DNA from: Acanthaster planci
Taxonomy: Eukaryota
Direction: 5' to 3'
NCBI RefSeq assembly: GCF_001949145.1
Contig: NW_019091359.1
Location: 2,394,861-2,458,860, forward strand
Length of the DNA stretch: 64,000 nucleotides
The translations under genes and the position numbers were made by a program. Within the stretch, counting starts at the first letter, position 1. The number at the start of each line of letters is the position of its first letter. Below, in pieces: positions 3,945-40,310 of the stretch. The notes beneath the pieces were generated by a model. It was not told the DNA's origin and did not search any database. It was given only the letters and a program-made list of their open reading frames with translations.

Positions 3945-4260
3945 CGACGGACGACGCACGATGAGCGACGGGCGACGCACGACGGGCGANNNNNNNNNNN
4001 NNNNNNNNNNNNNNNNNNNNNNNNNNNNNNNNNNNNNNNNNNNNNNNNNNNNNNNNNNNNNNNNNNNNNNNNNNNNNNNNNNNNNNNNNNNNNNNNNNNN
4101 NNNNNNNNNNNNNNNNNNNNNNNNNNNNNNNNNNNNNNNNNNNNNNNNNNNNNNNNNNNNNNNNNNNNNNNNNNNNNNNNNNNNNNNNNNNNNNNNNNNN
4201 NNNNNNNNNNNNNNNNNNNNNNNNNNNNNNNNNNNNNNNNNNNNNNGACGGGCGACGGCA
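3945..4260. repeat. CpG-rich 7-bp tandem repeat (CGACGGG/CGACGCA variants), mostly inside N gap 3990-4246
   Basis: cgacgga cgacgca cgatgag cgacggg cgacgca cgacggg left of the gap, and gacggg cgacggc right of it. Confidence 0.75.
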
Positions 4261-4417
4261 GATATGGAATTCCATAGTGTAGCGCGTTTCCTGTAATAAT
4301 GCCACTACGGTGGGTCTCGTGTGTCGGTGGAGGTAATAATAGCACTGATGCTTTGTTCACGTGATACAACGCCCCGGTCAGTTCCCCGCCAAGCATTAGG
4401 GCGTTGGTTCCTAGTCA

Positions 4418-7400
4418 ATGACCATGGCGGCAAGCGACGAGCCCAGTTACGACAGAATGGATATTTTCCCGACCTCAAGGGGTCACCCAAGACGCAGTGC
4501 TCTTTGCCACGACGTCATGGTCGTTGTGATCGGGATTGTGGCCATCGTTGCCCTGGTGTTCTCGGCAATTGCCTTGTCTCGCCCGGGAACGACGGAAGTA
4601 CAGCTTGACGGTGTGGCAGTAGGTACGTGAATACCGTAGGCCAACACGTGCGTTAGCAGCTGCACAGTGTAAGAAATTAAGATTGGGTACATTTACATGC
4701 TTACATGTTAAAAGTCAAAGCCCAGTGCACAGTGTAGCATATGCAGCAAGGTATGAGACGGAGAGAACCCCCACCCCTGCTTTGTGTTGGTCATTGTCTC
4801 GCAAGAATCTGGGGAGTTCCTTTCAGACATCTTGGGGGATGTGTTAAGTAACAATAGTCTGGAATGTGTATAGGGATTGGACATGTTCAGAGGGCTACCC
4901 CTCGGTCTCATTTCTTGATGGGTATACAGTGGGGGGTAAATACCCACCCACCCGCCGGGGGCACAACTGTTCCAGTGGGTATCGCCGATGAACTGTAGTT
5001 TGTACATTATTGTTGCGTGTATTTCAAGATCTCAAGTAATGGGGAGGTTTTTACTCAGCGGTGTGGGCCTAATTCCAAACGCATTCGGAGTTGCGCGTGG
5101 AAACCCTTGATCCCTCTCCATGGATAATTACAGTATGCTTGCAGTGACTTTCTATGTTATCTGCTACAGTGCTAAAGGTCATTTTTAAATTGGCCATCAG
5201 TAACCGCCCAGCAACTGCATTTGATGGACGCTAACTGTACCGTGTAGATGACTTGATTCATAAAAGTCAACTTCATGTACAGTGGTGTATATATTGCGTG
5301 ACTGTTTAGCCAGTCGCCTGCCTGGGGTCACGTACGTTTAGTGGGCCCTGTGCAGGCTGTGCTTGCATATCGGTGGTGACCTATGTGAGGGATCGGTCCT
5401 GCCACTTCCCTTGAAGACCTTGTGTGTGAATAATTGCTAAGAATCTATCAAATGGTGATATTTAATAGCTTCTGGTAAGAAAGATCTCCGAAAAATAATC
5501 AAACTCAAAGAAGTGGAAAATGCCACTTTTACGCCAAAAGATAATTATGAAAAAAATTATCGCGTTTTTTTAATTTGTGTCTAATTTTCACTATTTTGCC
5601 GGGCTTATCTTCAAGTGACTTTGATACCACATGAAGGACTAGTAACTCTTATGATCAAAAAGTTTATTACTTCAAGTCAGAAAACCTTTTTATGAAGTTC
5701 ACTTCGTTTTTCATTGGGACCCATTTTCCGTGTTTTTCTCCTTACTTAGCGCCAAATTTTCACACTTTTGTCGAATTCCCCTCAGATCATTGATGACACT
5801 GTCTGGAAGACTGATGAATCGTTTGTATCCATCAGTTCATTTCTTCAAGACTGAGATCCATTCGTCTGAAAAGCGGTTCGTTTTCATGCGGATTTCAATT
5901 TTCGTACTGAGTCCGACATGTCCAACAGCGATCAAAAATGAGATGTCCGGATTTGGGGCATGGCATACACGTACACGCACACACACCAAGATATAGATGC
6001 GAGTGCGTTTCGGGTTGACTTTTACTGCATGGCACTAATGCGTATAATGACGTCAAATTGCCCCACTAAAAAGCACCAACCGTTTACTTCCCGTTCTCAT
6101 TCATGCGGTTTCCTTCTTGCATGGTACTTTCTCATTAGAACGTCCATGATATTTGTCACTATTCAAAAGTAGAGAAATATCAAGGAAAACCCCACACAAT
6201 TAGAAAATATCCCCTGTAAAATGTTGGCTTCACTTCTAACTTCTGACTCTGTTACTTTGGAGGTACGTGAGATATACGGACAAAAATTTGGCAGAAAATG
6301 GATTTTTATTCTGTGCAAGTTAGCAAAAAGGACTTTGAGTGTTTAAGTACTAATCGGTATGGGGCAAACAACTATATCCGAGCTTGATGTTGATCAATTC
6401 TTTTTGGGGTCCACCTGTCCGAGTCAGAGACATTTTACTGGCTTCTGGCCGTAGTGGGATTCAGTACGCATGCGCACCAACGAAGTGAGGGGCGCGGCAC
6501 GAACAACGTGAGGTCCCTTATTTCGCCCCTATTTTGTCAAGCCTGATTGGTTTTCAGAGTAAGTGGCGAAATAAGGGACCTGGCAACTATACATGTACAT
6601 GTATACGGTCACGCATGGCATGTATTTACCAAGGTGGAACGTTATTGTCGTCACTGTTGTCTTTGGCAGGTTCTAGCCTAGCAAAAGATGACAAAATATG
6701 GATATTTGCGATTGGCCACGATGGTACCAACGTGGAGTATTTGTAAGTGCATGCTTTCACAATACATTTGTGTATACCCAAGACACACCCCCATTAGATA
6801 CTTCCAAGGTACCCACTCCACAATTGATAGTACACTGTACATGTATTCACTGTTCATGTAAGTCGGTCATGTCATTTAGAGTATTTTCATTACGACAGAT
6901 TTTTTTTCTTGCTTTCACTGACAGTGACAAAACGACTGGAACATTGAGGGGGTTCCATGTTGACATTGTTGACGCCGGTAAGTAAACAGGTGACAACAGC
7001 GATAACTAAAGCGACTGGTGGTCATTTAAGGAGGATCCAGAACCCAATTTTCTGGGGAGGGGATTATTTTTTTTTATTCCTGTGTATAACCTTTAATTCT
7101 ACGTGTTAGGGGTGAGGCTAAATTTTGGAGCTTTGATACACTTTTAGAGATAAGGGAAATAAAACATCCCTAAATGTCCTTTCTCTCACTATTCAAACAA
7201 TCGGGGAGGCAGTGGTGCGGCCTCAATAGCCAGTTCGGTACTTCAAAAAGACAAGGTTTGTTCGGGAATAAAGCACGCGCGTCACGGTGAGTTGGCATAT
7301 ATATGGCTGTGCTTATAGGACAGACAATCGCACACTGGTATACTGCTATATTGTTCCTGCATGACCTCTAGCCACGCTTACAGCTTTGGGCGCGCCCTGT

Positions 7401-10400
7401 TGGTGCGTTCGATTAGCTTCCCTGAATACACCAGTGTTACACTCGAGGGAAACCTCGAAATGAGGGTAATCGAACGCTGCAGTGTACTCGCCAAGTCATT
7501 CTTGGAAAAAGGTCAAGGCCCCGCCACGTTCCATCATGTAAGTCTATGCACGAACAGTCCATCCGTGACGTCATTACACTCGGGCAGCCTCCAGAGACCC
7601 GCTCGCCAGCTGGGGGTAGCAGTGGCTGACATCAGGGCAGGCACGAGAATCACGTGATGGCTCAACGAACGCTCTCGTGTAAGTTTGACTGACATGTGTA
7701 AGCTAATCGAACGCACCCACTGTCTCATCGGCCGCGTCCCTGGATCTGCCATTGGTTATCACAGTGCTGTTGACGATGTTGATTGTGTTCATTATTCGCC
7801 TTGAGCAGAAACGTTTACCCCCTCATCGGTTAAAAAGAGCCATGTTGGTTTGGAGGGTTGGGACTGTTCATTTTTGTTGTTTGATGATGCGACAGCAACG
7901 TGTCAATTTTATGGTCGTTTTTTGAAACCAGCGCGGTGCAGTTCCCACAAAAGAGCCTTCGTTGCTAGCAAACTTGGGCCCTCTCTTGGTCCAGCTCGGG
8001 ACTCATGGTATACTGACGAAAAAAGGCAAAGGACAATACGGTTGCGAAACCGGGAACTCGACTCTGTATACATATAATCTCTTTCAAATCACTGGTTTCT
8101 ATTTAGTGTGCCAAATGGCTGATAAAAATTGCCGGTTGATGTGGGATGCCTATGAAAACTGCTACACCTCAGACGAGGGGGAGTTGCCACGCCCTGGACA
8201 GGGACTGATTGGTCGTTGGTACGATGCATGCACTGGTAAGCATGCGGCCTCCTTACTTTGCTCTTGTGCATGCACATCAAGTTTTGCCCATCAGGAGTAA
8301 GTTATAGATAAGATTCTTATTTCCTGTGTTAAACTTACACCAAGCGACAGATCAAACCAACCAACACTTTGCTTTTCAGCATTTTGCAAAATCTAAAGAA
8401 GCGTCTATTCGCATAAAATTGATTAGAACAATCGGTCAAAGGTCGCAGACACCATTTTAGACAGAAAGGGTCTTCAAATCACGCACACTTTGACCAGACC
8501 AACTAATAGCAGTAACGTTACGCCTTACCAAAGGTATTGAAATATACATGACAAGGACACGATTGGTTAAATCTAGTCGTGTTTTGTTGAGTAGATATTC
8601 AAAACTGAATAAGACCCATTAGAGATCGCTGGGAGCATTCATGCGTGACGGGAAATGAATCAGACCACACAATATTGTAAGGTCTGCCCCCACTTGTGTT
8701 CTTAGCCTCACTGAAAATATTTCTATCCCCGGAATGATTGTCTCCAAGGCTGGTTTGCCACCCCTGAGCGCTCGGCGTCTGTCTCTTTCACCACGGCATT
8801 CCGTAAACCACTATCAAACGTTTTCTTCGTTAAGAAGGGCAACCCAAGAGGATTCGACGAATCTAACATCTCGGGCAAGAAAATTGCCTTCATCGACGGC
8901 TCCGCGACCAGTGAATTTTGTCTCCACCATGCTGGATATACCGTAAGACCAAAAAACTATAGTCCATCGAAAACACGCTTAACACAGAGCGTTTGTTCCG
9001 TGTACAGGTGACATAACACGCTAATCATGAAGGTCTGTATTTCATCTGGCGAGATGCCAAGTGTTAATATGAATTCCATCTGCTTGGCTCTCGGAGCATG
9101 TTATTTAACATAATGGCATCCTCTAGTACTTGTGTTTTCTCGACTCTGCATACCACAACATTTTTCATGTCTTGTAGAACTCGTTTTTGAGTCATTCTTT
9201 TTTCTTCTTCAAGGAGGAACAACTGACACCTGACCAAATCTTCCACTTCAAAAGCAAGAAAAGTTTGGTGAACGCTGTTAATAATGATCTGGTAAGCTAA
9301 ACGCGAATGATGCTGATGCACATGTTCATCTCTTGAGGTCAATCTTAATTTGGTTCCAGAAGGGGTGCACTTGGGCGAGCACTTTAGTTTTCTCCTCGTC
9401 ACTGTAAATACAAGTGTAAATGTTTTAACGCCTTTCAACCGCCTTTCAGGTAAACACTTCATGAACGTGTTGTAACCTAGGCCTATGCGGTTTGCAGTGT
9501 TTGAGCAGATGAGACCGACGTTTCCATGATTGTGGCTGAGTTTGTGCAAACCAGTTCTCGATTGGTGCCGGCGATCCAGATTTGTGTGAAACAAACAGGC
9601 CCATATTGTGTTGTATGACCACTGGATCACTGTGTATGTTAAATAAGGCGAAAGCATTCATAGCCATCTCATTCGAGCGCATTCCTGTTGAAGCTGTAAA
9701 TGATTAATGACTTCCCTTATACAATTGAGATTGCCTTCCTTTTCCACAGGTGGATGCTGCTTTTTGCAATACCCAATACTTCAATCTGGATGAGGATTTA
9801 CAGGTTGTGGGTGACCCAATTACAAGCTGCATGAAAGGAGGCGCCGGCATGATGGTCCGTAAAGACAGCCGGCTGCCAGATTGGTGGAACCCGGCCTTTG
9901 AACAGCTCAAACTGTCGTCGGAGTACCAGCGAATCTGCGATCGAGTTACCGAAGTGCACGGTGAGTACATGTACCTGGTTGACTGTTGGTGCCTTTGCCC
10001 AGCAAAGGCAAACACATTGAACGTTGTTGCTATCTTCGGTAGCCCCATATCGTTGGTTTCGTTTAATTCACCATTTTGTTCCATAGTTTCACCGTTCTGT
10101 CCCTGGTTTCGTTTGGTAGTTTCATCATTCTATTTGTCGAATTCGACATTCAATTCGCCAATTTCATCATCCAACTCGTCATTTGCTTTGTTCTATTCGG
10201 CAATTTCACTTTTTCATGATTTGTTAATTCATTTTGCCTTATTTGCCCGAACATGTCGTGAAAAATTGTTTCATTCCGCGAAAGCATAATTTTGCTTTGG
10301 ATTTTTTCTCTTGAAAGTATTCGATTCCATGCGTTGGCACAGCTACTCGATTTTACGTGTACATGTAATAAAATTGTACACGGCAAACTTTCCTTCCATT

Positions 10401-11286
10401 CTACAAAACGTATTATTCTTTTCGGCAAATTCGTTGTTCTTTGCTGCATCAGTCCTTTTGATTGAAGAGACTTTTTGACCGTACCGGGTCAATCTGAAAT
10501 TCTGAGCGCACGAGGAAGCCTCGAATAGCGACTAGACATGGATTTGGTTTGGTATTCTGCACAGTCGACAGAATAGAACTTGCTAAATGGAAAGGTTATG
10601 TTACAGAATAGAATGGTGAAATTGCCAAATAGAAAACTGAAATTTCAAACTTAAACGGTGAAATTGCAAGAAAGAGTGAAATTGACGGGTTTGGTGGAAA
10701 GATGCCTCATTGGCATCGACTAATCTCAAGATGAATGGCTAACCAACCGTTTTACCTAGCAATGAATCGATCTCTATTCGTTGAGATTATAGCCTCGTTT
10801 TGGGTCAACTTCGCCCATTCGCCGATAAAAGATAAATTGATGTGTATTCGGCTTTTCGATAAAACAATAAGACGAAAATGAAAAATATCGGAAATCTTCA
10901 GCTGCCGGAGTGTTCGAGATGAACCCCATGTCGCATACATGTATATGTATACTTTGTTCATACAGAAATTATCTTGGCCGTTCATTTGAGAATACCAGTG
11001 TAATGCACGGTCCACCTCATTCATCAGTCAGGCTTATGTATTTGTAGTTATCTTTCCGTTAACACAATATGGGAAATATTCAACAGGCTCCCTTGTATTG
11101 AGTCCTCGCACTTTGCAACATGTGCAGCATTTGCCTTCGAGCCTTGGTGTTATGTAACCAGACTGCTGAACAAGTTTTGATTTGCTGCTCGCATCAAGAC
11201 GGGGGCCTGTTAAAATTATTACATTCTTATTTCTTTCCGTCTTTTATCTAGATGCATCAGAGAATGGCATTGATTGTGTTGATTGA
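4418..11286 (+). CDS. Type II membrane protein with a stand-alone bacterial family-3 (HisJ/ArgT/GlnH-like) amino-acid solute-binding domain; 8 exons, 325 aa
   Basis: Exons 4418-4622, 6670-6742, 6925-6977, 8107-8235, 8749-8942, 9214-9291, 9750-9960, 11252-11286. All introns are GT-AG and phase-compatible (978 nt). Protein has an N-terminal TM (VMVVVIGIVAIVALVFSAIAL), then EYFDKTTGTLRGFHVDIVDAVCQMADKNC, GWFATPERSASVSFT, ISGKKIAFIDGS, VDAAF, GAGMMVRKDS, WNPAFEQLK, SEYQRIC. AATAAA near 11460. Confidence 0.85.
6511..6581. repeat. Short hairpin / mini-MITE with perfect 17-bp inverted repeat
   Basis: aggtcccttatttcgcc (6511-6527) is the exact reverse complement of ggcgaaataagggacct (6565-6581). Confidence 0.8.
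7402..7717. mobile_element. MITE with perfect 18-bp terminal inverted repeats, in intron 3 of the solute-binding gene
   Basis: ggtgcgttcgattagctt (7402-7419) pairs with aagctaatcgaacgcacc (7700-7717). A partial internal copy of the TIR lies near 7467. No clean TSD. Confidence 0.7.
10050..10690. repeat. Degenerate 21-bp repeat arrays in inverted orientation (foldback-like element)
   Basis: Left units such as tttcatcattctatttgtcga and ttgctttgttctattcggcaa. Right units such as aatggtgaaattgccaaatag are their reverse complement. Confidence 0.55.
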
Positions 11287-12847
11287 TTCCGTCGCAGATG
11301 ACGTCATCAACAAAACGGAACAGCAGGTGGTGGTTGTTTTAGAGTGATACATTGTACAAGGGAAATCGAGTCTTCTCTTGTTTTTGATTTGATTATAGTT
11401 TTAGCTTGCAGCTGTTGTAGTGGAGCGATAAATGTTGGTATGTTTTTGAAAACTGTTAAAATAAATGTGGCAGAGGTGGAAGTTTTACGCACTTACTTTT
11501 GATCCAATCACAGAGGCAATCTGGATTTTTTCCTTTTTATATGCTTCATATTGCGATTTAGTGACCGTAAATGTAGAATAGGCACGTGTGTTTCCAAAGC
11601 TTTTGTGTTAAAATTATCTTGCGTTGGCTACCTTTTTGTCATCAAGTGGCTGAACATCTCTAATTTTTTAGAATGCGTTGTATACGTTTCAAGTAACATT
11701 CATAATCTACAGGTGGAAGTGGAATGTTTGAATCGAATTTGGTGTTTGCATACATCATCCATAAAGGGGAAGTTGGGAAGATACCAATACACCAGTAATT
11801 ATTTGCTGTCCGTTTCACATTAAGCTGGAATTGCTGTTTTATAAGAATGGATGCTTCACATTTCATGTATATCAGTCTGAGTAATTTTTCATCGAAATAG
11901 GAGCAGCTCAGAGCATTATGACAAATCTTATTCATACATGTATTAAGTTTACTTTAATAAAGTACACGTGAAAAGATTTGACATGCCGACACATGAAAAT
12001 CAGACAGTGTTTTGTTTGATTTACGTCACATCAGCAGCACTTGAAAAAGCTTGGACAATTTGTAATGTTTTAAAGTGGATCAAATACGGTAAACACAAAA
12101 CAGTGATCTTCCATTGCAGAGCACCAGTTATTAATAAAGTTCTCCAGGGAGCGAGTCCGTATAAACAGGTTGGGCGTGGATGTCAACGCTGCGTGCAGTC
12201 GATGCGAGGTAATCTCATCAACAAAATTCATCGATGTGGATATGTTCAACAATTGAGCGCAGCATGGCTGTATGTTGAAAATAAGCCATGTCACTGTAAC
12301 ACATACACCCAGGAGCATTAACTATTATACAATAGTGCGTAAACCTGTGCAACATACGTTGTGCAACAGGTGTACAATGTATGTGGTTTCTGAAGGTTGA
12401 ATGCAACCTTTTTTATTGATACTACCCTGCAACTTCGACACAAATCCTGGTGGATGGGAGTTATGTATCCCCCATACGTTTTCTCTGGAGGAGATCAACC
12501 ATTGGATCATCCCCCACCTTTCTATGCTAAAAAGGGCGTTCAGGGTATAATTTCCAACTTCCCAACACTGTTTTGATGTTAAGGAGTGTAAGTGTACATA
12601 AGATGTTCATCGGTATCATGATCAGCGCTTCCTGGAGTTATGCGATGTCCGGCAGTTCCCTCGCCCACCCCAATCTTCACTGTCCCTACTCTGCTTTTCG
12701 AATTGTCACGGCCAGGAAATGTTTAAGGCATCCCCCACTACTTGGCACAAACTAGATTTACCCCACTGCTGCGGACTTAATGCCCGAGTAACTCCACATG
12801 GATGACAAGGACGTGGCATCTTTGAACGCCATGAGTCACTATGAGAG

Positions 12848-15691: not shown

Positions 15692-18600
15692 TTACAGAGT
15701 GATCAACGGGGCACTTTCCTTAATGCCCCCTCCTTCTGTAGTATCGTTGTCGCCCTCTTTTGGTGAGGTGGTAGACATGACTGCATCGTCAGAGACTCTA
15801 TCTTCTTTCCTGACTGTTTTGGCTCCCTCCCCTGACCCCTCTCCCTCTACCTCATCTGTGACGCCACCATTCGTGAAGGATGTCACCGTACCACGAGAGA
15901 AACCACCTTCTTCTTCCACTGTCTCCGAGATCAAACTCATCCCAAGCTCTTCTGTCACCGTCGTCTCGTTGTTACCCTCCACGTCGGGAATCGACAAAGC
16001 GTTCTCGGGGACCTCGAGTTGGAATTTGCGCTTGGACGTCGAGATATCGAGCCGGTACTCGTTTCTTCTTCTAGTCAGGTACCCTTGGCGGACGACGAAC
16101 AGCAGGAAGATGAAAAGCCCCTGCAGGGAGTTGAAGGCGCAGAAGAGGATCTGGAAGATGAAGTTAGTGGACTCGACGACAGAGAAGAGACCGAAGATCC
16201 AGGTCAGACCCAGCAGGATCGAGATGGAGACCATGTTCTGAAGACGCCTGGCCACTTTGCTTCGTCTGCTTCTCACGGTGAAGCAGACGGACTTGTCAGC
16301 TTTGCATGTCAGCTGGCGGATGACAAGTACGAAGATGGTGACGTTGAAGAGGAGGACCAGCCCGATGATCAGCAGTTGACCGTAATAAAAGGCATTGCCA
16401 GGCTTCAGAAAGCAGCTGGAATTATTAAACAGAAGTTGAAAAATAAAGCTAGACGAAATCCGATATACCCAAATTGTAAATATTCTTCTTATAACAGTTT
16501 GTGACATAAATCACTTCTTTTTTGCAAGGTTAACTGACTACCTCAATTTAGAAACAGTAATGTGACATCTGACAACCATTTTGAACAAGAAAAACATTCA
16601 AATATCAGTTACCTTGTTGTGTTTTCATATACAGTGTAATCCACACCAAGTATAACACCAACGACTATCATTGGCAGCCCTATTGAAAAGAAAGACCAAA
16701 TTTGGCTTAAATTTAAATTTGAAAANNNNNNNNNNNNNNNNNNNNNNAAAGAATTGTAGATACAATAAACTTAGACTGGGTGGTCATTTTCTTCCGGTGA
16801 CTATGGGGAGACATCATATCACCAACAAATTAGGCCGTGGCACTTCGTCATTTTAATTGTAAAGCATTGTTAATTAACCCGCCTTGGGACCCTTGAGATC
16901 CAGATCCAAGTGAAATAAACAAGCCCAGTGATATACTTGTAGATTCGGCAATTCAAACATGCAAGACATCCTAATTTTTTATCTCTGGCTTGTGGCCAAT
17001 AGACGGGCTCCCAGTGTGATGATGTGAGCTTAGCACACCTTGAACAATCCCAGAGCCTATTCCATTTCGACGAACGACTTTAATTGTCTGGCACGTGGAC
17101 CGCTCAAAATTTGCATGCACGTGTACGTTTTTCGTGAGAGAGCAAACCACGGATTAGGAGAAAACGTGTAATCACTGGGCCACCTCCATCCCAGGGACCC
17201 CAAACCCGTATCTCACTCACCCCAGGCTACAACGAATGCCTTGATCATGAAGTGCTTCACGTCAGCTCTGAAGACCCTGATTAGCTTGAGGTAGAGGTTG
17301 GTAGCCTCCACACCCATCCAAAACACGGAGGTTAGGGCGAAGTAGTGCATCAAGACAGCCATGACGATGCAGACCACGCGAGAAGACGTCTGCTCGATCC
17401 CGAACAGAAAGACGGCGTACAGGCAGAGCAGAGACAGGCAGAACCAGATCAAGATGTGACTGGCTGTCTTCTTTCGAAATTTTCTGTCCACAAGATATAA
17501 GTCAGGTCAATCTAAGGACATTTGCATACATCAAGGTTGCCTAAACATGACTTCTACACNNNNNNNNNNNNNNNNNNNNNNNNNNNNNNNNNNNNNNNNN
17601 NNNNNNNNNNNNNNNNNNNNNNNNNNNNNNNNNNNNNNNNNNNNNNNNNNNNNNNNNNNNNNNNNNNNNNNNNNNNNNNNNNNNNNNNNNNNNNNNNNNN
17701 NNNNNNNNNNNNNNNNNNNNNNNNNNNNNNNNNNNNNNNNNNNNNNNNNNNNNNNNNNNNNNNNNNNNNNNNNNNNNNNNNNNNNNNNNNNNNNNNNNNN
17801 NNNNNNNNNNNNNNNNNNNNNNNNNNNNNNNNNNNNNNNNNNNNNNNNNNNNNNNNNNNNNNNNNNNNNNNNNNNNNNNNNNNNNNNNNNNNNNNNNNNN
17901 NNNNNNNNNNNNNNNNNNNNNNNNNNNNNNNNNNNNNNNNNNNNNNNNNNNNNNNNNNNNNNNNNNNNNNNNNNNNNNNNNNNNNNNNNNNNNNNNNNNN
18001 NNNNNNNNNNNNNNNNNNNNNNNNNNNNNNNNNNNNNNNNNNNNNNNNNNNNNNNNNNNNNNNNNNNNNNNNNNNNNNNNNNNNNNNNNNNNNNNNNNNN
18101 NNNNNNNNNNNNNNNNNNNNNNNNNNNNNNNNNNNNNNNNNNNNNNNNNNNNNNNNNNNNNNNNNNNNNNNNNNNNNNNNNNNNNNNNNNNNNNNNNNNN
18201 NNNNNNNNNNNNNNNNNNNNNTGACGTTGCTCATTGATTTGCTGTCCTGCATTGACTAAACAATGAAACACTACAGAAAATGCGCTAAGCTTCAACAAAT
18301 TATGCTGAACCAGTTGCAGCACAGAAACTTCTGCTTAGTAAAACAAAGCTTTGTTGCTCATGAATATGGATAGGCCCTACTAATACAAGCATACCAAGAC
18401 TAACAGACGCAGTTGCTGTACTATGTCAAGGATTTGTTGGACATGAATATGGAAATACACATTGGCATTAAAACCAGCAACGCTCCTCCAGCACTTTTAG
18501 GGATACTTAAGCCGGAGAACTGAAGAGAATCTATAAAATTGAATTTAAAAATTCTTTCAATGTCTTCTAATCTCCCGTTTTGATTTTGGAAGTGGAAATT

Positions 18601-21600
18601 CCCTAAGCATTTTAAAGCCGCCACTGCTGCTAAATCACAACTGACTGAGCTTTCCCATCTCATTAATCAAGTATTTGTTGTATTACCAATAGAAAAATCA
18701 TTCCTTGGCTCGACATTCGATTTTTCTCAGTAATTATGTGTTATTGAAAATTGCAGAAATTGACGATTGTGCATCAAACTTACTTGACAGCCAGATACAC
18801 GACGATAGTAACCACAAGGGAGACAATGGAAACACCGCATCCGATTTTACTAATTAGATCCAAGGCTAAGCTGGAGTATTGACCGTGAATATCCTTAAAG
18901 AAAAGCAGAGACACTTTCAGTTGTTTCGTATCTTAACATACTGAAACAATCTCAATCATGAATTGCAAGGATTTTGGAGAAACAAATTGTGTTTAGTTCT
19001 TGGGATTTTAAAGACTTTGTGGACACAATTAATTTCGAAACTATAAATTCCAGACGCCCCTTTTGACAAGCATCTTCACATTTTGGGGGGTATTAAGGTT
19101 TGTCAGTGAAACACAACGATTTAAAAAAAACAAGGTGATTATTTTTTTATAGTTTACCACAAGTACGGCAAAGCTGGTAGCATGGTTGCAATGACACGCC
19201 GTCCGTCCGTCACCCGAGCGGGCTTGTTTGCAGCCCGCTGTCGACCAATCACCGATTCCATCTTCAAGACGAAAGTCCCAGAACACACATGATAGACTTT
19301 CTTTAATTTTGTCAGATTTCTGGTTTATCTGAGAAAGAAGTTTGAAAAATTGTTTCGAGATGAAATGAAGTCATGGAGTATGTCCATTCAACAGGAAATT
19401 TCTTTTTCCCCGGAAACTTCAAAATATTTTCCGGTCTCTTCGGGAAAGGGTCCTCAACTTTCCTGTATGGTAAAAAAAACCATTCCTTTTCAAATAAATT
19501 TCTTTCAAAGACACATTTTCAAACAAAGCCCCTCCCCATTACAATAATTACTGTCATTGGCCCTGTGGTTGATTAATGGTATGCTTGACACAGTAGTCTT
19601 TCTTCTACCTGTTTTTGCCAATTGTGAGGAGCAAAGGTGCTGGAAACAGGTGTCTTGGACGGAAGATCGTCAATAGTGGAGTTGATCACTGTAGCTGATA
19701 TGACAGAACTGGCAATGGAAAGATTCCTTGAAGCATCTTCCATAGCTTTAGCAATCTTCTTTGAGCGGAACAACTTGGTATTCTGATATAGGATAAAACT
19801 GATGGGAACTGCTCCTCCTTCTGTTGGTGAACAATAATATTTGAACACACCTTAGTAACAGACAGCCGAAATGTTGAAACATACCGATGTAACAACACGC
19901 AATGCATAAGCCTAGCGGCCCAAAACAGGCAAAGAAGGAACCAGCAATGTACTCAAGTGCCAGGTACCAGTTGGCTAGCGTCATTACCAATATTGACTTT
20001 TTGCGCACACCATATACGCCATACCAACAGTTCTTAGAAGCAGCCAACAGTCAAGTGTTTTTGAGTACATTAATTGACTCCTAGTTTCTGTTCGAAACTA
20101 CTTTTCTCGGCTTTTCTTTCGTGTGCCTGAAAGAAGGGCGTAAGCACTGACGCCCTTCAGCCGGGAAGCATGATCATTGCAAAAAAACTTTTCACGGCAA
20201 AAGGACGTATGTATGCAACTGTTTTATTTTAATGAAATGTAAAGATTTCACAAAAAATTTCCCAAGTTGTTCACAGGTTCCTCTTTGTACAGTCTGTGTT
20301 GATTTTGTAAAAGATTTTATCTGGTTTTTACTAAATAAAGAGAGTGACGCTGTGTTTCTCATGCCCTTTTACCGGAACAGTTTTTCTGCTGTAATCATGC
20401 TTTCCGACAAAAGGGCATAAGCGCGCTTACGTCGTTTTTGCAGGGCACACGAAGTTTGAATCTTTAAACTTCATCTTTTGCTGGAGGTCAGCGCTTTTCA
20501 AAAGCAAATAAGTTAAACAAAAGGGCAGGCTACTTTGACTTGACCTCTTAACTTTTAGCAGCTGTAGGACATGTTAAATTCAGGGTCAGGATTATCCATG
20601 AAGCATTACTCTGAGCAATATATGCCTAAAAATGGGGGGGGGGGTCTTCAAACTGTGGCCGAAACTGCGGACGTACCTGTTATATTCATGTCTTATATTT
20701 TTATATAACAGGTTTTGCCCTTACCTAACGTATATATTAATAAACACTGTATGCTCAGTGCTTGTCCGAGAGCTTGCGAAAAAAAGTCACAAGCTTACTC
20801 GGGTGGGACTCGATCCCACGACCTCCTGCTTACTATATTTTTGCGTGAAATTTGTCTGTCTGATGCACATGATTCCAACAGGATTTTGGAGCAGTTAGGT
20901 CTGGCTTTAATGCATACAGCTCAAGTCGAATCGGCATAAAATGCGAGGCCCCAGTGCTTATCAGCCAGCGCTCCAAAGGGTACCAATGGGACACTGGTGC
21001 CGAGGGTCTTCAGGACACCTCATTACAGCCCTGGTTACACATTATTACGAGGGGATACACACGAAAATATTGCACAATCTACCTGAAACGAAGTTCATTA
21101 GTACTTCCCCCGGAAGAGAGATGGAAGCCTCAACTTTATCCATGGGAATTGCTGACTCGGAATAATAAACACTGACTCTACCCTCCGTCAAGGGATCTTC
21201 TCCAGTCGTTCCTTTCATACAAACAAGACCAACCCCACCAGCGACAGAGCTGGGAGAGGCACTCAGCGCCTTGACGGCGAGGCTACTCGTAACTTTGGAG
21301 AAGTTCGCGCCATTTGCGAGAACGTGCGAGATTTGGCTGTCAAGGGCTTGGATTATGCGAGAGGATGAATCATCAGCTGGTTCACCGCTGTCTTTTTTAT
21401 CAGCTTGGAGGAGGTTGTTCACCACGTTCACGACATCAGATGTGACCTACCGAACAAGAATGTCACATCTTTATCCAAATTTCAAAACTTTCGTGAACAT
21501 CTACTGTTCCATAGTTAGTCGGCAAAAGCTCGAAGATTTGAAACTTCAGAAAGCGTAACTTACTTCCGGAGAGGAATCTCTAATATTAATAATATTGTCC

Positions 21601-24600
21601 AGGACATCAGCTGTGGAAGACAGTGCGGCTTCATCAATGGAGGAGATGTTTTCAGTCAGAGAGATCAGAAGTTCTGCAACCTTCTCCACATTATCTTTTG
21701 TCACCGTTTTCTGAGAGTAAAATGAAACCAATTTCACTGGTCTCCTTCATTCGGCAATAACTGTGTTATTGTTAAAATTATGCGTAATTATATACCCTTA
21801 TGCTTCATTTAAGACCTGATATTTGGGGTGCGGGAGCTGTGCTTTGAAAAGTGAGCTTATTTTGTCAAAATAGCATATTAAGCAAACAGCTTAAGTCAAA
21901 ACTTCGTATAGGCCTATGGCTGCTCCAATTACGATAGGGACTGTCACTCGCGCATCCGGTCCGTCAGCAAAAATGCAGGGGCGCATCAAGCATAGTCTCC
22001 CTAGACTGAGTAACCGGTGATGACATACCGCCCTGCTGAAAATAAACTATGATAATGTTCACATAGTTAAATACCGGTAAATCAAACAATATTCCACAAC
22101 TACTCACATTTTTCAAGCTATCTAGCTGATCATTGACATCTGGAGTACAATTATTCAGCACGGGTTCCTGCCATTTGGCAAGACTGGTATTACCAACGCA
22201 CAGTCGAAAGGCGAGTGCCGGACCATCTGAAAAACAGTATGGATTTACATCACAAATTATTGCTGATTGCACAGATGGAATGCAGGATTCATACGGTTTG
22301 GTCTAGCTTGAAACTCTAGTACCAGACCAAAGGAAAGAAATCCGATCATTTTTCAAATTACACATGTACTTGTAATATAGACCTACATCCCAGCTATGTG
22401 GGCTAAAGGGGGCTGCAGCGGCGCAAAATGAAGAATTTTGCGGCAAATATCGGGATAGTGCGAACAAATAATACATGAAAAACTGGGATCATGGTGATAA
22501 TTGCTGACAAGATCTTTAGATGTCACAAACTGTTTTGAAATTGATTATATAAATTGTTTTCTGAGTGCCTCCATGGCTTAATTTGGCGATGGAAAGTAAA
22601 TGGGTCAAATGATGATTTAGCAACAGGCCAACCAAACGCGACCGATATCGAGTGAAAACGCATCTCGTTTAAGCTACTCGTACCTTGCTCCGTGAGGCTG
22701 CACGTCTCCAGCGATTTAGCACTCGATCCAACACTGGTTTCCAAGAAAGTCAGAATGTTCCCAGCAAATAGCAGAGCCTCATACGGACAGGTAGCTTCAA
22801 ATAAGCAGACAATTTCAATTTTTCATATTTTCAAAAATCTTAACATCCCAAAAAGCAGAATTTGCTTTTTCTGCAAACCTTCTCAAAAATGTATGTGTAA
22901 AAATGTACGTGGACTCAGGCAAACACTTGCCTGAAGACCAGCCGTTTTGTTTCATTTCACCTTCCTGTTGGGAACAAGTTTGACAGTGTCATCAAAAAGC
23001 GTAAAATAAACTAGAAAATCACTATATACACATGTCAGCCAGAACCCTCACGCAACTTGAGAATACAAGGTGCCTTTCTGCATCATGTGAAGTTTTCGTT
23101 TAAAGGACCCATGCAATTCTTACCATACAGTTTTACTTGTGCAATATTCCTTTTGTCTGATTCACTCGGAGCCGTTTTTATGGCATTTGGGCCGTTTTCT
23201 AATACTTATTTTAGGCTCCGTCTCAGGCTTCAACTTTTTTTGTTACTTCCTGACTTTGAGGATGTAAGCGCACTTGTAAGTCTGATAGTGCCACAAAACA
23301 TCAAGTAAACTGCAAATTAGCAAAACATTAGAGTACTTCAATTTAAGTTAAACGCTTCAGGCCCACAATCGGGGATTGGTTTCCTACACGAGGACGAAGT
23401 TGAGTATCGGAACACGGCCCAGGTTTTCTTTGGATGCTAATGCAATTTGCGTATTGATTTATGAGATAGAAATCTCACTGTTATAGCTTTTCTTCGCTAA
23501 ATTAAGCCAGAATGCTTAATATTTTGCTGTCAAAAAGGGCTTGTTTACTTCCCTTATTCGCTGTTGTTTCACTTCTGACATGAGCAGAGTTTTCTTACAA
23601 ATATTTTCAATCGGCATATTTTGCGTCAACAGTCAGCATGGAAACCCCCTGTACATCATGACCGGGAGATTAATGACATCGAAGCAACAGCGCCCTCACT
23701 GCCTTGGAAAAGCATGCGAAACTTTGAATGTTTAAAGGTGCACTTTTAATAATATCCAAAAAGGGATGTTGGACAGTTATATAAAATATATTTAGGAGAG
23801 TGGAAAGTTGCACAAAAGCATTTAAAGCTGAAGAATATATCACGGAAACGAAATCGTGGATAAAGCTCATTTGCATAAAATTATTCATTTAGCAGAGTTT
23901 CTATTTGCCCAAATTTTGAAAGGGCTTGGGCTCTTAAGCAGTCTAGTTAAAACACAAAACAGCCAAACACACACTACCTCNNNNNNNNNNNNNNNNNNNN
24001 NNNNNNNNNNNNNNNNNNNNNNNNNNNNNNNNNNNNNNNNNNNNNNNNNNNNNNNNNNNNNNNNNNNNNNNNNNNNNNNNNNNNNNNNNNNNNNNNNNNN
24101 NNNNNNNNNNNNNNNNNNNNNNNNNNNNNNNNNNNNNNNNNNNNNNNNNNNNNNNNNNNNNNNNNNNNNNNNNNNNNNNNNNNNNNNNNNNNNNNNNNNN
24201 NNNNNNNNNNNNNNNNNNNNNNNNNNNNNNNNNNNNNNNNNNNNNNNNNNNNNNNNNNNNNNNNNNNNNNNNNNNNNNNNNNNNNNNNNNNNNNNNNNNN
24301 NNNNNNNNNNNNNNNNNNNNNNNNNNNNNNNNNNNNNNNNNNNNNNNNNNNNNNNNNNNNNNNNNNNNNNNNNNNNNNNNNNNNNNNNNNNNNNNNNNNN
24401 NNNNNNNNNNNNNNNNNNNNNNNNNNNNNNNNNNNNNNNNNNNNNNNNNNNNNNNNNNNNNNNNNNNNNNNNNNNNNNNNNNNNNNNNNNNNNNNNNNNN
24501 NNNNNNNNNNNNNNNNNNNNNNNNNNNNNNNNNNNNNNNNNNNNNNNNNNNNNNNNNNNNNNNNNNNNNNNNNNNNNNNNNNNNNNNNNNNNNNNNNNNN

Positions 24601-26894
24601 NNNNNNNNNNNNNNNNNNNNNNNNNNNNNNNNNNNNNNNNNNNNNNNNNNNNNNNNNNNNNNNNNNNNNNNNNNNNNNNNNNNNNNNNNNNNNNNNNNNN
24701 NNNNNNNNNNNNNNNNNNNNNNNNNNNNNNNNNNNNNNNNNNNNNNNNNNNNNNNNNNNNNNNNNNNNNNNNNNNNNNNNNNNNNNNNNNNNNNNNNNNN
24801 NNNNNNNNNNNNNNNNNNNNNNNNNNNNNNNNNNNNNNNNNNNNNNNNNNNNNNNNNNNNNNNNNNNNNNNNNNNNNNNNNNNNNNNTTTGAGAGTGTTG
24901 TAGTTGCTATGTTGAATGTGGTAGTTGCTTGAGTGGTTTCCTTTACTGTACTGACAAAGGTTTCTGTTGTTTCACTTGGAAAGGTTGAAGCCACCGGAGC
25001 TGTAGGTTCAGTTGTTCCAGTTTGACTTTGTTGGGTTCCACCAAATGTTGCATTCTCTACGGTTGTTGCACTGTCCCCTATCAATATGGTGGTAGCCTGC
25101 AAGTCTGTGGTTTGCACGGATAAACTGGCCGCTGATCCTGATGATGTCGTCACGGTGTTTATGTTGGAGATCGTGGTTTGAGCTGATGGAGTGGCATTAG
25201 TTATGCTTGCCGATGACAGTGCGACCGAGGTCTGAATGGCTGTGGCTAGTTCCTCAGTTGTACTTTCCAAAGTTTTTGTCCTTGTAGCGGTGGTGATGCT
25301 CATAACTGAAGGTGTAATTTTAGTTGTGTTCTCTGTCGATGTGGTGGTTTCCATAAAGACTAACGTGGTATCCTGAACAATCGTGGTTTCCTCGGTTGTG
25401 ATGTCGACAGTTTCTGTTGTCTCAGAAGCCGATGTGGTCTCATATTTGGAAGTGGTGACATCATTTAGAGGGGTTTGAATTGGGATGGTTGCACCGGACG
25501 TCGTGAGACTTTCTGCCGATGAGGAAGCGGCTTGGCTGGTCAGAATAGTGGTTGCCGGGCCCGCTGTGAATGCCTGCGTTGTTTCACCTGATAGTGATGT
25601 CTGGGACATGGTTGCAACCACGGTCGATCGGCCTGTGCTTTTCATCCATGCTGAAGTAGTCTCGGCCAATGAAGAAGTCGCCTCTGCGGCACTGGTTGAT
25701 TTTGATGTTTGAGCCGTGTCTGTTGTCACTTCATCGGCGATTGTGGTCTCTTCCTTTTCCGTGGCAATATTTGTTGTGCTGGTCACGTCTGGAAACTGGT
25801 TTCCAGTCGTCAAGACGTCTGTGGTGGTTGAAACTGTTGTGAAGGTTGACTTCTCTAATACGGCTTTTTGAAAATTTTAAATTGAAATGAAATGAAAGGT
25901 TATTCCTGTTAGTCTAGTAGCAGACAAAGAAATCTCAAATAAGTTGTGATTTGATGTAGAAACTATTGTGGCTTGGTGTTCCCCCAAATACTCACCGACT
26001 ATATTAGTGCCAGAAATATCATCTATACATGAGTTCAAGAGTTCAATGTATTGAGGCCAATGCAGGTTCGGTATACGCTTGCTGTTCAACATATTTACAC
26101 GTACACAGTGGTTGAGAAATGTATTTATGTCAGACTTCTTCCATGTCTCCTTTTGTTTAACATTTAAGGTTATTTAGTTCCTGACTATTTGGCCGACTTT
26201 TAAGAGCTTGAGCTCCTGAGCGGTCTGAATGGAACTCAAAGCAGCCAGACACACACAAACAGAATGTTAAAGATCAAAGGTAGGAGAGCTAAAGTCACAA
26301 ATCTTTTTGGAAAACTCCTAGAGAACCAGCATATGTGACAAATTTTAGGTTACCCTTTAGGCATGAATAAAATCAAATTACTTGACCATAATGGTCATAA
26401 AAATGAAACAAAATATTTGAGAGAGATTATGGAAACATTGATAAAGATTTCCTCTTTTGAAAAACATTACATTCTGCAAGTGATTATTGTTTTTAGATAA
26501 AAATGAAACTTTTCTCTTCAGTCGTAGAGACTTCAGTGATGGTTGAGACATCCACCGGGAATTAATGCTAATATTGGAAAAAGTATCTGTGTATGATTTC
26601 GAAAACTACATTTATTTAGGCCAGCACAGAATCGGTAGACTTGCATGTCAGCTGTTATGTCCACAATTATTCAAGAGAATGTATTTCCTGTCAAACTCCT
26701 CCAAATACCACACACGATTTTGCCAGGAATCTGTCAAAGTCCCCATTACAGGTGAATTTTCTTCTTCAATTAACTCAGGAAACGTGGTACTTACTTTGAC
26801 AGAAGACCAGGCTGCTCAAGATAGGCATAAGAAGCCCAGTTAGAAGTAACTTTCTAGCGAACATTCTTGTTTTCAGCGCTAGGGTACAGTACAT
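15692..26894 (-). CDS. Adhesion GPCR (ADGRG-like architecture): signal peptide, Ser/Thr mucin stalk, HRM, GAIN/GPS, 7TM, acidic C-tail
   Basis: Exons 26795-26894 (MYCTLALKTRMFARKLLLTGLLMPILSSLVFCQ), 25854 into gap 23981-24887 (mucin), 22684-22794, 22108-22226, 21564-21710, 21083-21446, 19609-19820, 19158-19328 (CVFWDF...WSTAGC...CHCNHATSFAVLV), 18784-18893 (TM1), 17221-17483 (HYFALTSVFWMGVEA), 16613-16679, 15692-16415 (LLGLTWIFG, FNSLQGLFIF). All visible junctions are GT-AG and phase-consistent; the 3' end of the mucin exon lies in the gap. Confidence 0.92.
16885..17202. mobile_element. Possible degenerate MITE in adhesion GPCR intron
   Basis: Imperfect inverted ends tgggacccttgagat / atcccagggacccca, with a possible imperfect 9-bp TSD (aacccgcct / aacccgtat). 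Confidence 0.35.
20118..20453. mobile_element. MITE with imperfect ~40-bp TIRs
   Basis: Left end ttcgtgtgcctgaaagaagggcgtaagc resembles the reverse complement of the right end, ttcgtgtgccctgcaaaaacgacgtaagc. Confidence 0.6.
20740..20835 (-). mobile_element. Truncated tRNA-derived SINE
   Basis: cacaagcttactcgggtgggactcgatcccacgacctcctgctt matches the fuller copy at 49140-49280. Confidence 0.6.
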
Positions 26895-30361: not shown

Positions 30362-31750
30362 TTATTGTTTCTTTATGTATATGTAATTGGACAGAGGGAA
30401 ATGTTCTAATTGATTTGACATCATTGGATGTGTCCTTCTAAAGTCTAGCGTCTCTTCCAGACACTGCATCGTCACAGGGTCGAAATCGTAATGAAACTTG
30501 TTTGCAAAGAGATTGGGGACCCGTATGAGGTACTGGAGGTAGTCTACACCAAATATGCACACGACTCGGACGTCCTTCCCAAAACGGCACTTTGGGGTGT
30601 TACGGTGGCTCGTCCATTTTACGAACCGAAACCTGTAGCCAGAGTTGGCGATGTTGTCGGGAAATCCACCGGGAACGCCCGGCAGCCTTTGCAGGGTCGC
30701 CCAATAGACTTCATCGGGGCTGTAGGTGTCGCGTGTCCACTCCAGCAGATCAATGGCTCGCTGGTCGGTCAGCACAAACTCGATGAACCGTCGCGTTGCC
30801 GCAAAGTAGGCGTTACCGTTGTGCAGCTTCACGCCGTGGGGAGGGGGGCGCTTGCGAATTCGAGTGAGCTCAACCTTACCATTTCTAACAGCGTGGTGAA
30901 AAAACGTCCAGTATTTTTTATATGCTGTCTGGGGATAGCTTACGATATCATTGGTGCCGTTATAAAATCGCAATTGGCGCACAATTTCGAGATTTGTTTT
31001 AAGAGGGAAATCTTGACCACACAAGTTAATCAGGTACCTCCAAGCGCGAACCTGAGTCCGAGAGCCCGTTAAATCTTGCATACAGTTGATATCGGCGAGG
31101 AGTCGCGTGAACCCAGCGTACTGAACATCCTCGAGCTTTGACGCGATAAAAACGTTATCAAAGCAATGGGCGAGGCCGCGAATCGCACCCTGAAAATCTT
31201 CCGATGATCCGGCGTCCGGATGAATGCAGTAGACGTTCTGTGGTTGGTAAATTTCCCGCAGCAACCTCTCGACTTGAGCCGAGGTGATGTGAGTGATGAT
31301 CGTGTATGCAAGAGGAAAGCTGGCCTCCTCCTCTGACGAGGGACGTAACGGGTATCCCCTTTCCCTTCGGAATGTATCACAGTCACGCGTCCAGTTCCGT
31401 ACTTCTGCGTCTGTCGGGACAGGGAGAGACCCGTTATTCTGTTCCCTCTCCCCGGCGATGAACCTCGCTGTTTCTTCGATCTCAGCATCGTCGCCGGCAA
31501 ATAGAGCGGAGCAGTTGACATCCCAGTGCCGGTGATACATGACACGTGAATGGCTCATCTCTGCTACTTGGCTCTCTCCGTTCGATGTAGACATTTCTCT
31601 GTGCCTAGCCGTCCATCGCCATACGTCACTCGTGGTCTGGCCCTGCAAGATCTGTAGCATGACGACCGTGACGCAGGAAGCAACCAGGACACCAAACAAG
31701 ATAATCCTCGATCTAAAACGCTTACATATCAAGCGGTTTGGGAAATCCAT
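30362..31750 (-). CDS. Beta-1,6-N-acetylglucosaminyltransferase, core-2/I-branching enzyme family (GT14; GCNT-like), single coding exon
   Basis: Type II TM near the N-terminus. Motifs FPLAYTI, IYQPQNVYCIHPD, RLLADINCM, WRYLINLCGQDFPLKTNLEIV, TYSPDEVYWATL, RFVKW, LFANKF. First ATG at 31750 (462 aa). An in-frame acceptor AG at 31794-31793 allows an upstream exon. Confidence 0.93.
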   Translation of the reverse strand: MDFPNRLICKRFRSRIILFGVLVASCVTVVMLQILQGQTTSDVWRWTARHREMSTSNGESQVAEMSHSRVMYHRHWDVNCSALFAGDDAEIEETARFIAGEREQNNGSLPVPTDAEVRNWTRDCDTFRRERGYPLRPSSEEEASFPLAYTIITHITSAQVERLLREIYQPQNVYCIHPDAGSSEDFQGAIRGLAHCFDNVFIASKLEDVQYAGFTRLLADINCMQDLTGSRTQVRAWRYLINLCGQDFPLKTNLEIVRQLRFYNGTNDIVSYPQTAYKKYWTFFHHAVRNGKVELTRIRKRPPPHGVKLHNGNAYFAATRRFIEFVLTDQRAIDLLEWTRDTYSPDEVYWATLQRLPGVPGGFPDNIANSGYRFRFVKWTSHRNTPKCRFGKDVRVVCIFGVDYLQYLIRVPNLFANKFHYDFDPVTMQCLEETLDFRRTHPMMSNQLEHFPLSNYIYIKKQ

Positions 31751-34432: not shown

Positions 34433-34560
34433 AAACTCTTAAACATTTTGATGTGTTGGCCTTGTGGATGAAACGCATGCTGAATCAAGGCAGGTCGATG
34501 CCGTTAAGTCTGCCAAAAAATACATCGCTTCAGGCAATTACACTTTATTAAAACATTTCT

Positions 34561-40001: not shown

Positions 40002-40310
40002 TGTAAGGTGGAATTCTTTCCAGTGGGATGGCCAGTAAGCTGATGCCATAAGTTGGGAAGGTACATTGGTTACATCACTAATACTGGCTATTGTTATATC
40101 TGTATCATTTCAGAATTACTTACAGCAGTACAAGTTTTTTTATCATCCATCTTACAACTTCTTGCCATTGATAAACATTTCTGCCTGTTGTCGAAGCAAT
40201 CATTTTACTGATCCTTTCAGAGAGCTTTCCAGCTGTAAATTGGTAGATGGAAGTCATTTACATGCAGGGGAAGACAAACTCAGCCCTGTTATTGCCACTG
40301 GAAATCAAGG

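Follow-up and report, generated by a model that had tools for sequence, protein, structure and literature searches.

A spliced and expressed starfish gene encodes a predicted membrane-anchored, stand-alone family-3 binding domain of likely bacterial root with a remodelled pocket

How does a starfish come to encode a bacterial-type solute-binding domain that stands alone on a membrane anchor, and what might such a protein bind? To our knowledge, animals use the family-3 domain only within glutamate-type receptors. The question arises at positions 4418..11286 (forward strand) of a 64,000-nucleotide stretch of the Acanthaster planci genome (contig NW_019091359.1), hereafter the window, for which a first-pass annotation made from the letters alone had proposed an intron-containing gene for an anchored amino-acid binding protein. 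Splicing by coordinates gave the eight in-phase exons that this annotation had read, a coding sequence of 978 nt for 325 amino acids whose sole stop is terminal; all seven introns (182-2047 nt) run from GT to AG. The start is fixed by an in-frame TAG located 6 nt 5' of the ATG. All seven exon junctions were present in the raw RNA runs X12, X15 and X16, with 63, 93, 79, 85, 89, 91 and 71 reads per junction, in order, in X15, and read depth tracked the exons. The gene is real, spliced and expressed. Among five raw RNA runs of similar volume, exon depth reached tens of reads in X15, X16 and X17 versus about 1-3 in X12 and X19, so expression is sample-dependent. The X8 and X9 contigs covered 30 of 30 bins of 8050-10050, introns included, and held none of the three exon joints located there. 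A chance chain of exons was ruled out by the intact 325-residue frame, the GT-AG introns and the junctions read in RNA. The spliced protein is 94.8% identical to the A. planci protein LOC110983787 (P0001), with 17 of 325 residues differing, and P0001 rather than the spliced window protein was the query in all later searches. Truncated gene models suggest, indirectly, that the intron positions 154, 218, 245 and 315 are common to echinoderm relatives and position 93 to amphioxus and a hemichordate-like record.

The layout of the protein was followed along the exons, which were placed by splicing and junction reads, with alignment added for exons 2, 4, 5 and 7. A 5' untranslated region (4363..4417) extends at least to the lowest position of the X1 contig. 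The coding part of exon 1 (4418..4622, residues 1-69) comprises the start codon, a cytosolic tail of about 32 residues, the signal-anchor helix and the beginning of a stalk. Only one hydrophobic segment was found, at about residues 33-53 (4514..4576); it is predicted to be a transmembrane helix from hydropathy, a helix at 28-54 in the structural model and conservation across 60 anchors. The charge flanking it, +3 before and -1 after, indicates a type II (N-in) anchor, which together with hydropathy supports the short cytosolic N-terminus and single helix described earlier. Exon 2 (6670..6742, residues 69-93) encodes the first strand and a GHDG loop in which the positions of D11 and Y14 of the bacterial binding protein LAO are both Gly, and exon 3 (6925..6977, residues 93-111) the G-x-L-x-GF-H-VD motif. 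Exon 4 (8107..8235, residues 111-154) carries C112-x6-C119, Y126, a family-specific insert of 11 residues, C129 and C152. The GWF-x-TPER motif, R161 (codon 8769-8771), the hinge, GKKI..G204 and C211 fall in exon 5 (8749..8942, residues 154-218), which is followed by exon 6 (9214..9291, residues 219-244). Exon 7 (9750..9960, residues 245-315) brings VDAA, a Cys or Ser at 250 (9765), N251 (9768-9770), C271, WWNPAF and C307, and the coding part of exon 8 (11252..11286, residues 315-325) ends with C323 and the stop codon. Read depth extends the 3' untranslated region (11287..11800) at least to 11800.

All the family-3 motifs that had been listed are present in the spliced protein. Pfam SBP_bac_3 (PF00497) scored 41 bits with P0001, over the cut-off of 26.4, and was matched by all 33 aligned animal proteins; single exons alone scored under the Pfam cut-off. 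The sole hydrophobic segment precedes the domain, which supports an uninterrupted domain with neither channel nor permease in the protein. The profile TIGR01096 (LAO/ArgT/HisJ/ArtJ subfamily) gave 43.6 bits, under its cut-off of 256.35. Of the Pfam families for glutamate-receptor domains, Lig_chan-Glu_bd (PF10613) was reached by one of 33 family members, at E 0.063, and Lig_chan (PF00060) was absent among the 25 listed of 35 families. An AlphaFold model built from 33 relatives, with a predicted local distance difference test (pLDDT) score of 84.6, showed the predicted two-lobe fold of type II periplasmic binding proteins, in line with the first-pass annotation. Foldseek placed LAO/ArgT first (E 2e-15), the listed rows being all bacterial binding proteins, and look-alikes in the Atlas were bacterial SBP_bac_3 clusters. 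With VIA-align, the best Z was 20.9, for LAO (root-mean-square deviation 3.4, 222 aligned residues), and the receptor domains came close, with 19.4 for GluR0 and 18.4 for AvGluR1 and GLR3.4, so the fold alone cannot part binding proteins from receptor domains. At the level of sequence, 62 PDB entries matched the animal profile (best 3e-18), with no glutamate receptor among the 60 listed, and the same profile reached a median of 82 bits on rows of solute-binding proteins (SBPs) versus 22 on GluR0-like rows. These scores and matches place the protein nearer in sequence to bacterial LAO/ArtJ/HisJ proteins than to GluR0-type domains.

To see what the pocket could hold, we mapped its columns, taking the E. 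coli proteins ArgT, HisJ, ArtJ and ArtI as reference. Ligand contacts in LAO are made by D161, S72, R77, D11, Y14, F52 and D30, according to the accessible part of PMC7815116. R161 of the starfish protein aligns with the carboxylate arginine R77 and is kept in 156 of 166 animal-type domains. The LAO triad D161/S72/R77 reads N251/F156/R161 here; it is intact in none of 161 animal-type, 33 protist and 14 bacterial cysteine-rich domains, and in 29 of 33 ordinary SBPs and 7/7 GluR0-like domains. Acidic residues (D/E) occupy the D161 position in 7/161, the D11 position in 18/149 and the D30 position in 18/152 animal-type domains, S72 is kept in 26/166 and T121 in 27/166, and the F52 position is aromatic in 106/155. 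LAO D11, Y14, D30 and F52 correspond to G84, G87, H104 and Y126, one of the four being kept in kind. New aromatics appear at the L71 position (150/166 animal-type domains) and at the S120 position (124/166 versus 0/33 ordinary SBPs), and a histidine, H314, is found in 114/166. Since the alpha-amino contacts are lost, the ordinary amino-acid binding proposed before is unlikely. RefSeq and UniProt names such as 'arginine-binding' and 'histidine-binding periplasmic protein-like' are automatic labels without support from the pocket residues, and 'arginine-binding' is probably wrong.

Loss of these contacts could reflect decay or remodelling. The gene's own group, 24 rows from sea stars to acorn worms with a median identity of 52%, has seven lobe-I pocket columns with a mean entropy of 0.11 bits, compared with 1.23 over the full set of columns, and 22 of the 24 rows retain N251; H85, D86 and H104 are conserved in this group as well. 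The near-fixed lobe-I pocket and the kept N251 argue that the pocket was remodelled, not decayed, and we read it as a working, rebuilt site with ligands that would be specific to each paralogue. F156 aligns with the Phe located five residues ahead of the Arg in the ectoine binder EhuB. Compared with an aromatic cage around the cationic group, such as EhuB residues are taken to form, F156 and Y126 would fit and G87 would not, one of these columns being placed by alignment.

We favour, with a probability of about 0.5, a tethered protein that captures a small solute bearing a carboxylate, likely not gripped in the manner of a standard amino acid, and that acts via a partner. The outer domain would be a Venus-flytrap domain that captures a small dissolved molecule by its carboxylate, and four disulfides would stiffen both lobes outside the cell. 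R161 would pair with the ligand carboxylate, as R77 does in LAO, while Y126, W155 and F156, joined in most members by an aromatic at 205, would replace the acid and hydroxyl groups that formerly gripped the alpha-amino group. Such a replacement would suit an N-substituted amino acid, a betaine-type osmolyte or cue, or an organic acid. Closing of the lobes would retain the ligand at the cell surface. Because the cytosolic tail is short and unconserved, output would need a second membrane protein or self-association of the anchor. The anchor has a face of small residues (A42, A45, S49 and A52) conserved from starfish to Priapulus, Lingula and amphioxus, with Ala at position 45 in 47 of 60 signal-anchored proteins, which points to helix packing and could provide the self-association route. 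The captured molecule would then be passed to a partner receptor or transporter, and a variety of ligands would be served by paralogues that differ in their pockets and occur in secreted, anchored and tandem-repeat form.

Several observations weigh against this capture model. The starfish protein has Ser at 205 in place of the family aromatic, and Gly87 and Ala206 stand at the Y14 and T121 positions, the loss of which stops ligand-driven closing of LAO according to the accessible part of PMC13041562; closing of the starfish domain may thus be weak. Lobe-II contact columns are variable even among the rows of the starfish group (1.39 bits). In the animal family as a whole, pocket columns show no extra conservation (2.66 versus 2.55 bits on average), a variability that fits ligand variety and also relaxed constraint. 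The EhuB profile TIGR02995 gave 27.5 bits, under its cut-off of 190.9. Residue mapping, disulfides and pocket geometry rest on alignments, not on model coordinates, and the topology on hydropathy and charge.

The family extends well beyond starfish. Word-seeded searches retrieved 34 and 35 proteins from sea stars, brittle stars, urchins, a crinoid, hemichordates, Priapulus and Lingula, and a search with the full profile library matched 337 representatives (E<=0.001), 150 of them listed. Of 30 representatives looked up, 11 carried an organism name: Elysia, Mytilus, Owenia (2), Lingula (2), Saccoglossus, Ptychodera, Branchiostoma, the green alga Prasinococcus and the diplonemid Namystynia. The range thus comprises echinoderms, hemichordates, amphioxus, priapulids, brachiopods, annelids, molluscs, a green alga, a diplonemid and a few rare bacteria, the named records spanning at least seven animal phyla. 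Restriction of the family to starfish or to worms was ruled out, as members from many phyla, two Owenia proteins and the starfish one among them, fall in one clade. No vertebrate, insect or nematode is named among the 150 listed of 337 matches, and no search was aimed at them. By a crude hydropathy rule, the 157 animal-type proteins (those lacking an organism name being assigned by tree position) divide into 60 signal-anchored, 55 signal-peptide-like, 13 unclear and 29 partial sequences; seven of the 157 are tandem arrays, and paralogue expansions occur. P0187, P0148, P0146, P0171 and P0119 are protist or protist-like arrays of 3-8 binding domains, and some protist-like arrays carry thrombospondin, EGF, WWE and ADP-ribosyltransferase domains. 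P0085, P0110 and their relatives, a subclade containing hemichordates, carry a signal peptide as well as a pro-region of about 100 residues that is conserved, looks helical and matches no Pfam family. We found no description of the family in a literature search that covered freely accessible texts: the accessible parts of the main text and two supplements of the hemichordate genome paper (PMC4729200) held no matching passage, and the relevant passage in the accessible part of a sponge genome preprint (bioRxiv 120998) concerns ionotropic glutamate receptors (iGluRs).

Two bacterial-looking matches, P0122 and P0170, led to three intronless loci flanked by bacterial genes: L001, L004 in a gammaproteobacterial metagenome-assembled genome (MAG) and L005 in an acidobacterial MAG. 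A first genome scan with alignment A2 gave no loci, and a second one gave L004 and L005. No ATP-binding cassette (ABC) permease or ATPase lies beside any of the three. Such cysteine-rich copies are rare among the genomes searched: one order yielded 1 of 151 genomes and one phylum 1 of 301, and both times this was the genome from which the copy came. The animal profile found none in the 301 genomes of the phylum of G002, though L005 lies in G002; weak relatives are thus missed by genome searches, and the counts of bacterial rarity are lower bounds. Viral contigs, searched with two queries, and plasmids, searched with P0170, gave no relative. In L005:288-3590, the acidobacterial copy precedes a sodium:solute symporter encoded on its own strand by about 860 bases, and genes for an aminotransferase and an amidohydrolase are close by. 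This hints that the bacterial protein might supply a secondary transporter; neither L001 nor L004 has a symporter neighbour.

These bacterial relatives also bear on the cysteines. Nine had been counted in the ectodomain, and all nine are present in the window sequence (112, 119, 129, 152, 211, 250, 271, 307 and 323), but C250 is allelic: 9765 is T>A in part of the X8/X9 depth, and the RefSeq protein has Ser. C112 and C119 align with C38 and C45 of ArgT. Four conserved pairs are found together in nearly all animal-type domains and in 14/14 bacterial cysteine-rich domains, two pairs in most protist rows and one in ordinary SBPs, and the pairs occur or vanish jointly across the family. As the four pairs and the 11-residue insert are in 14/14 domains of the rare bacterial relatives, the idea that the extra cysteines were gained in animals did not hold. 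The C-x6-C motif is present in 151/152 animal-type domains, 0/7 GluR0-like domains and 30/33 SBP rows, the last count being biased because these rows were chosen by the animal profile.

Where did the domain come from? An IQ-TREE phylogeny was computed on 72 rows (33 of 105 were dropped as redundant, long or mis-cut; the bootstrap had not fully settled). Animals, protists and rare bacteria form one cysteine-rich clade (support 100/98), which is nested in proteobacterial proteins of the LAO/ArtJ/HisJ type (99/97) and separate from GluR0-like domains. The domain therefore likely has a bacterial root, on the LAO/ArtJ/HisJ side of family 3. If the animal clade (92/85) holds, the domain was present in the last common ancestor of bilaterians. 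The first-pass annotation had proposed an old horizontal acquisition from bacteria. The bacterial part of that proposal is the likely one; a transfer straight into animals is not established, since protists carry the family. It would be one of several histories, whose direction the tree does not settle: eukaryote monophyly is absent from the best tree and not rejected by the approximately unbiased (AU) test (p=0.249).

Among these histories, an old eukaryotic family, inherited or passed among eukaryotes after one early bacterial gain, is a serious contender that falls somewhat short of even odds. The cysteine-rich bacterial copies would then be a sister line or would have returned from eukaryotes, with no transfer into animals as such. 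This is in keeping with the membership of Prasinococcus, Namystynia and the protist-like arrays, with the position of the bacterial copies within the eukaryote rows of the best tree (94/92) and with their great rarity (1/151 and 1/301 genomes). However, animals and the bacterial copies (14/14) share four cysteine pairs, an 18-residue insert span and W155, which fits exchange between the bacterial cysteine-rich line and the animal stem, and most protist rows share just two pairs with animals. Eukaryote monophyly is also not recovered, and no choanoflagellate, sponge or cnidarian was found among the 11 named of the 30 representatives looked up. A glutamate-receptor ligand-binding domain that lost its channel is very improbable as a source, despite the close folds. 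The best tree separates GluR0-like domains from the family (99/97 and 100/99), but their union with it is not rejected (AU p=0.214; receptor rows prokaryotic GluR0-like only). Neither a break nor a channel remnant lies between the lobes, C-x6-C is missing from the GluR0-like rows, and the profile scores and the listed PDB matches described above point the same way.

Turning to function, the protein may still bind ordinary free amino acids and serve body-wall uptake of dissolved ones, the main idea of the earlier annotation, with N251, backbone groups, H85/D86 and H104 replacing the lost contacts. Its nearest solved relatives are all polar amino-acid binders, R161, Y126 and T158 are kept, as is N251 in the starfish group, and its hosts are soft-bodied marine invertebrates, animals that absorb dissolved amino acids through the skin. 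We consider this unlikely, given that no animal-type domain has an intact triad, that acids are rare at the D11 and D30 positions and that no ABC permease or ATPase was found among the 25 window open reading frames (ORFs) scanned. An ecto-enzyme derived from a binding protein and acting on a carboxylate-bearing substrate has a precedent in cyclohexadienyl dehydratase, which evolved from a cationic amino-acid binder of the same fold and lost amino-acid binding (accessible part of PMC7683729). This enzyme is among the PDB profile matches at 1e-5, the rare bacterial members lack a transporter operon, and conserved His/Asp residues exist (H85, D86 and H104 in the starfish group, H314 more widely). 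Yet R161 is the sole polar cleft residue conserved family-wide, and position 254, which we take to be the column of the dehydratase general acid, is highly variable; an enzyme thus seems improbable. Slightly less credible again is a surface recognition or adhesion module for a larger partner such as a peptide end, a microbial wall fragment or matrix. Paralogue expansions, the family-wide variation of the pocket and the many members built as arrays of 2-8 domains, a few of which also include thrombospondin and EGF domains, would agree with it, but within the starfish group neither R161 nor the buried pocket of lobe I varies much at all, and the close folds are all small-solute binders or their sensor and enzyme offshoots.

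The gene has animal neighbours. Pfam families were found in 4 of the 25 window ORFs scanned, all animal-type. Exons of a secretin-family (adhesion-type) G-protein-coupled receptor (Pfam 7tm_2; 15695-21446, reverse strand) converge on the 3' end of the gene, and Pfam scans of long single ORFs gave a core-2/I-branching glycosyltransferase (30362-31798, reverse strand), a rhodopsin-type G-protein-coupled receptor (34552-35850, forward strand) and an F-box protein (40239-41867, forward strand). A bacterial contaminant was ruled out by these neighbours. No tandem paralogue is present in the window, where 11 family proteins match solely the gene's own exons. Assembly gaps lie at 1783-2579, 3990-4246, 17560-18221 and 23981-24887; the second lies some 170 bases ahead of the start codon, so that part of the promoter is lacking. 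High-copy repeats in introns 1, 3 and 6 (4738-4926, 7445-8006 and 9524-9605) draw many unrelated reads, the first at a depth of about 500-600 per strand. In exon 7, a divergent haplotype at 9750-9860, visible in part of the X8 and X9 depth, has six linked changes within about 75 bases and matches the RefSeq protein. Four of the changes alter residues (250, 254, 263 and 270), two of which adjoin pocket position 251. The haplotype could represent balanced alleles or a close paralogue.

A broader proposal, speculative and on balance doubtful, starts from the analogy with odorant-binding proteins. This bilaterian-wide, bacterial-derived flytrap family might be their marine invertebrate counterpart, its paralogues, some secreted and some anchored and every one with a pocket of its own, catching waterborne betaines, amino-acid derivatives and organic acids and passing them to chemoreceptors or transporters via the conserved membrane helix. 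If so, the family would have been overlooked because it seems absent from the usual model animals; it would also offer a handle on feeding, settlement or aggregation cues of the crown-of-thorns starfish. The ectodomain is small, which makes its ligand directly testable. The family could show by what means dissolved organic matter is sensed or scavenged by soft-bodied marine animals. It could also offer a way to control a coral pest and be a source of new disulfide-stabilised biosensor scaffolds.

Compared with known systems, the starfish protein shares some features with each and differs in others. With EhuB, a family-3 protein that binds ectoine, a non-standard zwitterion (accessible part of PMC5924519), it shares the Phe ahead of the Arg, the two differing in profile score (27.5 bits versus the cut-off of 190.9). 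Cyclohexadienyl dehydratase has the family-3 fold and has likewise lost amino-acid binding. The rare bacterial copies (L001, L004, L005, P0122 and P0170) share the four cysteine pairs, the insert, R161, the broken triad (14/14) and W155, and have an aromatic at 205 (14/14 domains); they differ in being intronless, in having a signal peptide instead of a type II anchor and in their 24% identity to the starfish protein. The starfish family has no conserved acid at column 254, which would correspond to the catalytic glutamate of the dehydratase. LAO/ArgT, HisJ, ArtJ/ArtI and STM4351 share the fold, the uninterrupted two-lobe domain and C-x6-C; the equivalents of R77, F52 and G119 are kept, and LAO-type proteins are the nearest outgroup in the tree. 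Unlike them, the starfish gene is spliced, its product has a type II anchor and carries three additional cysteine pairs along with the 11-residue insert, the positions of D161, S72, D11, Y14, D30 and T121 are changed, and no importer partner was found among the ORFs scanned. The ligand domains of glutamate receptors (GluR0, AvGluR1, plant GLR, animal iGluR and ionotropic receptors) have the same fold (Z 15.6-19.4) and the carboxylate arginine, but they are split by a channel and keep the residue for the alpha-amino group (7/7 GluR0-like), whereas the starfish protein has one helix followed by an unbroken domain. In these animals, the domain stands by itself in proteins that are anchored, secreted or tandemly repeated, and its pocket appears to have been rebuilt in one consistent way and kept through the whole echinoderm and hemichordate history.

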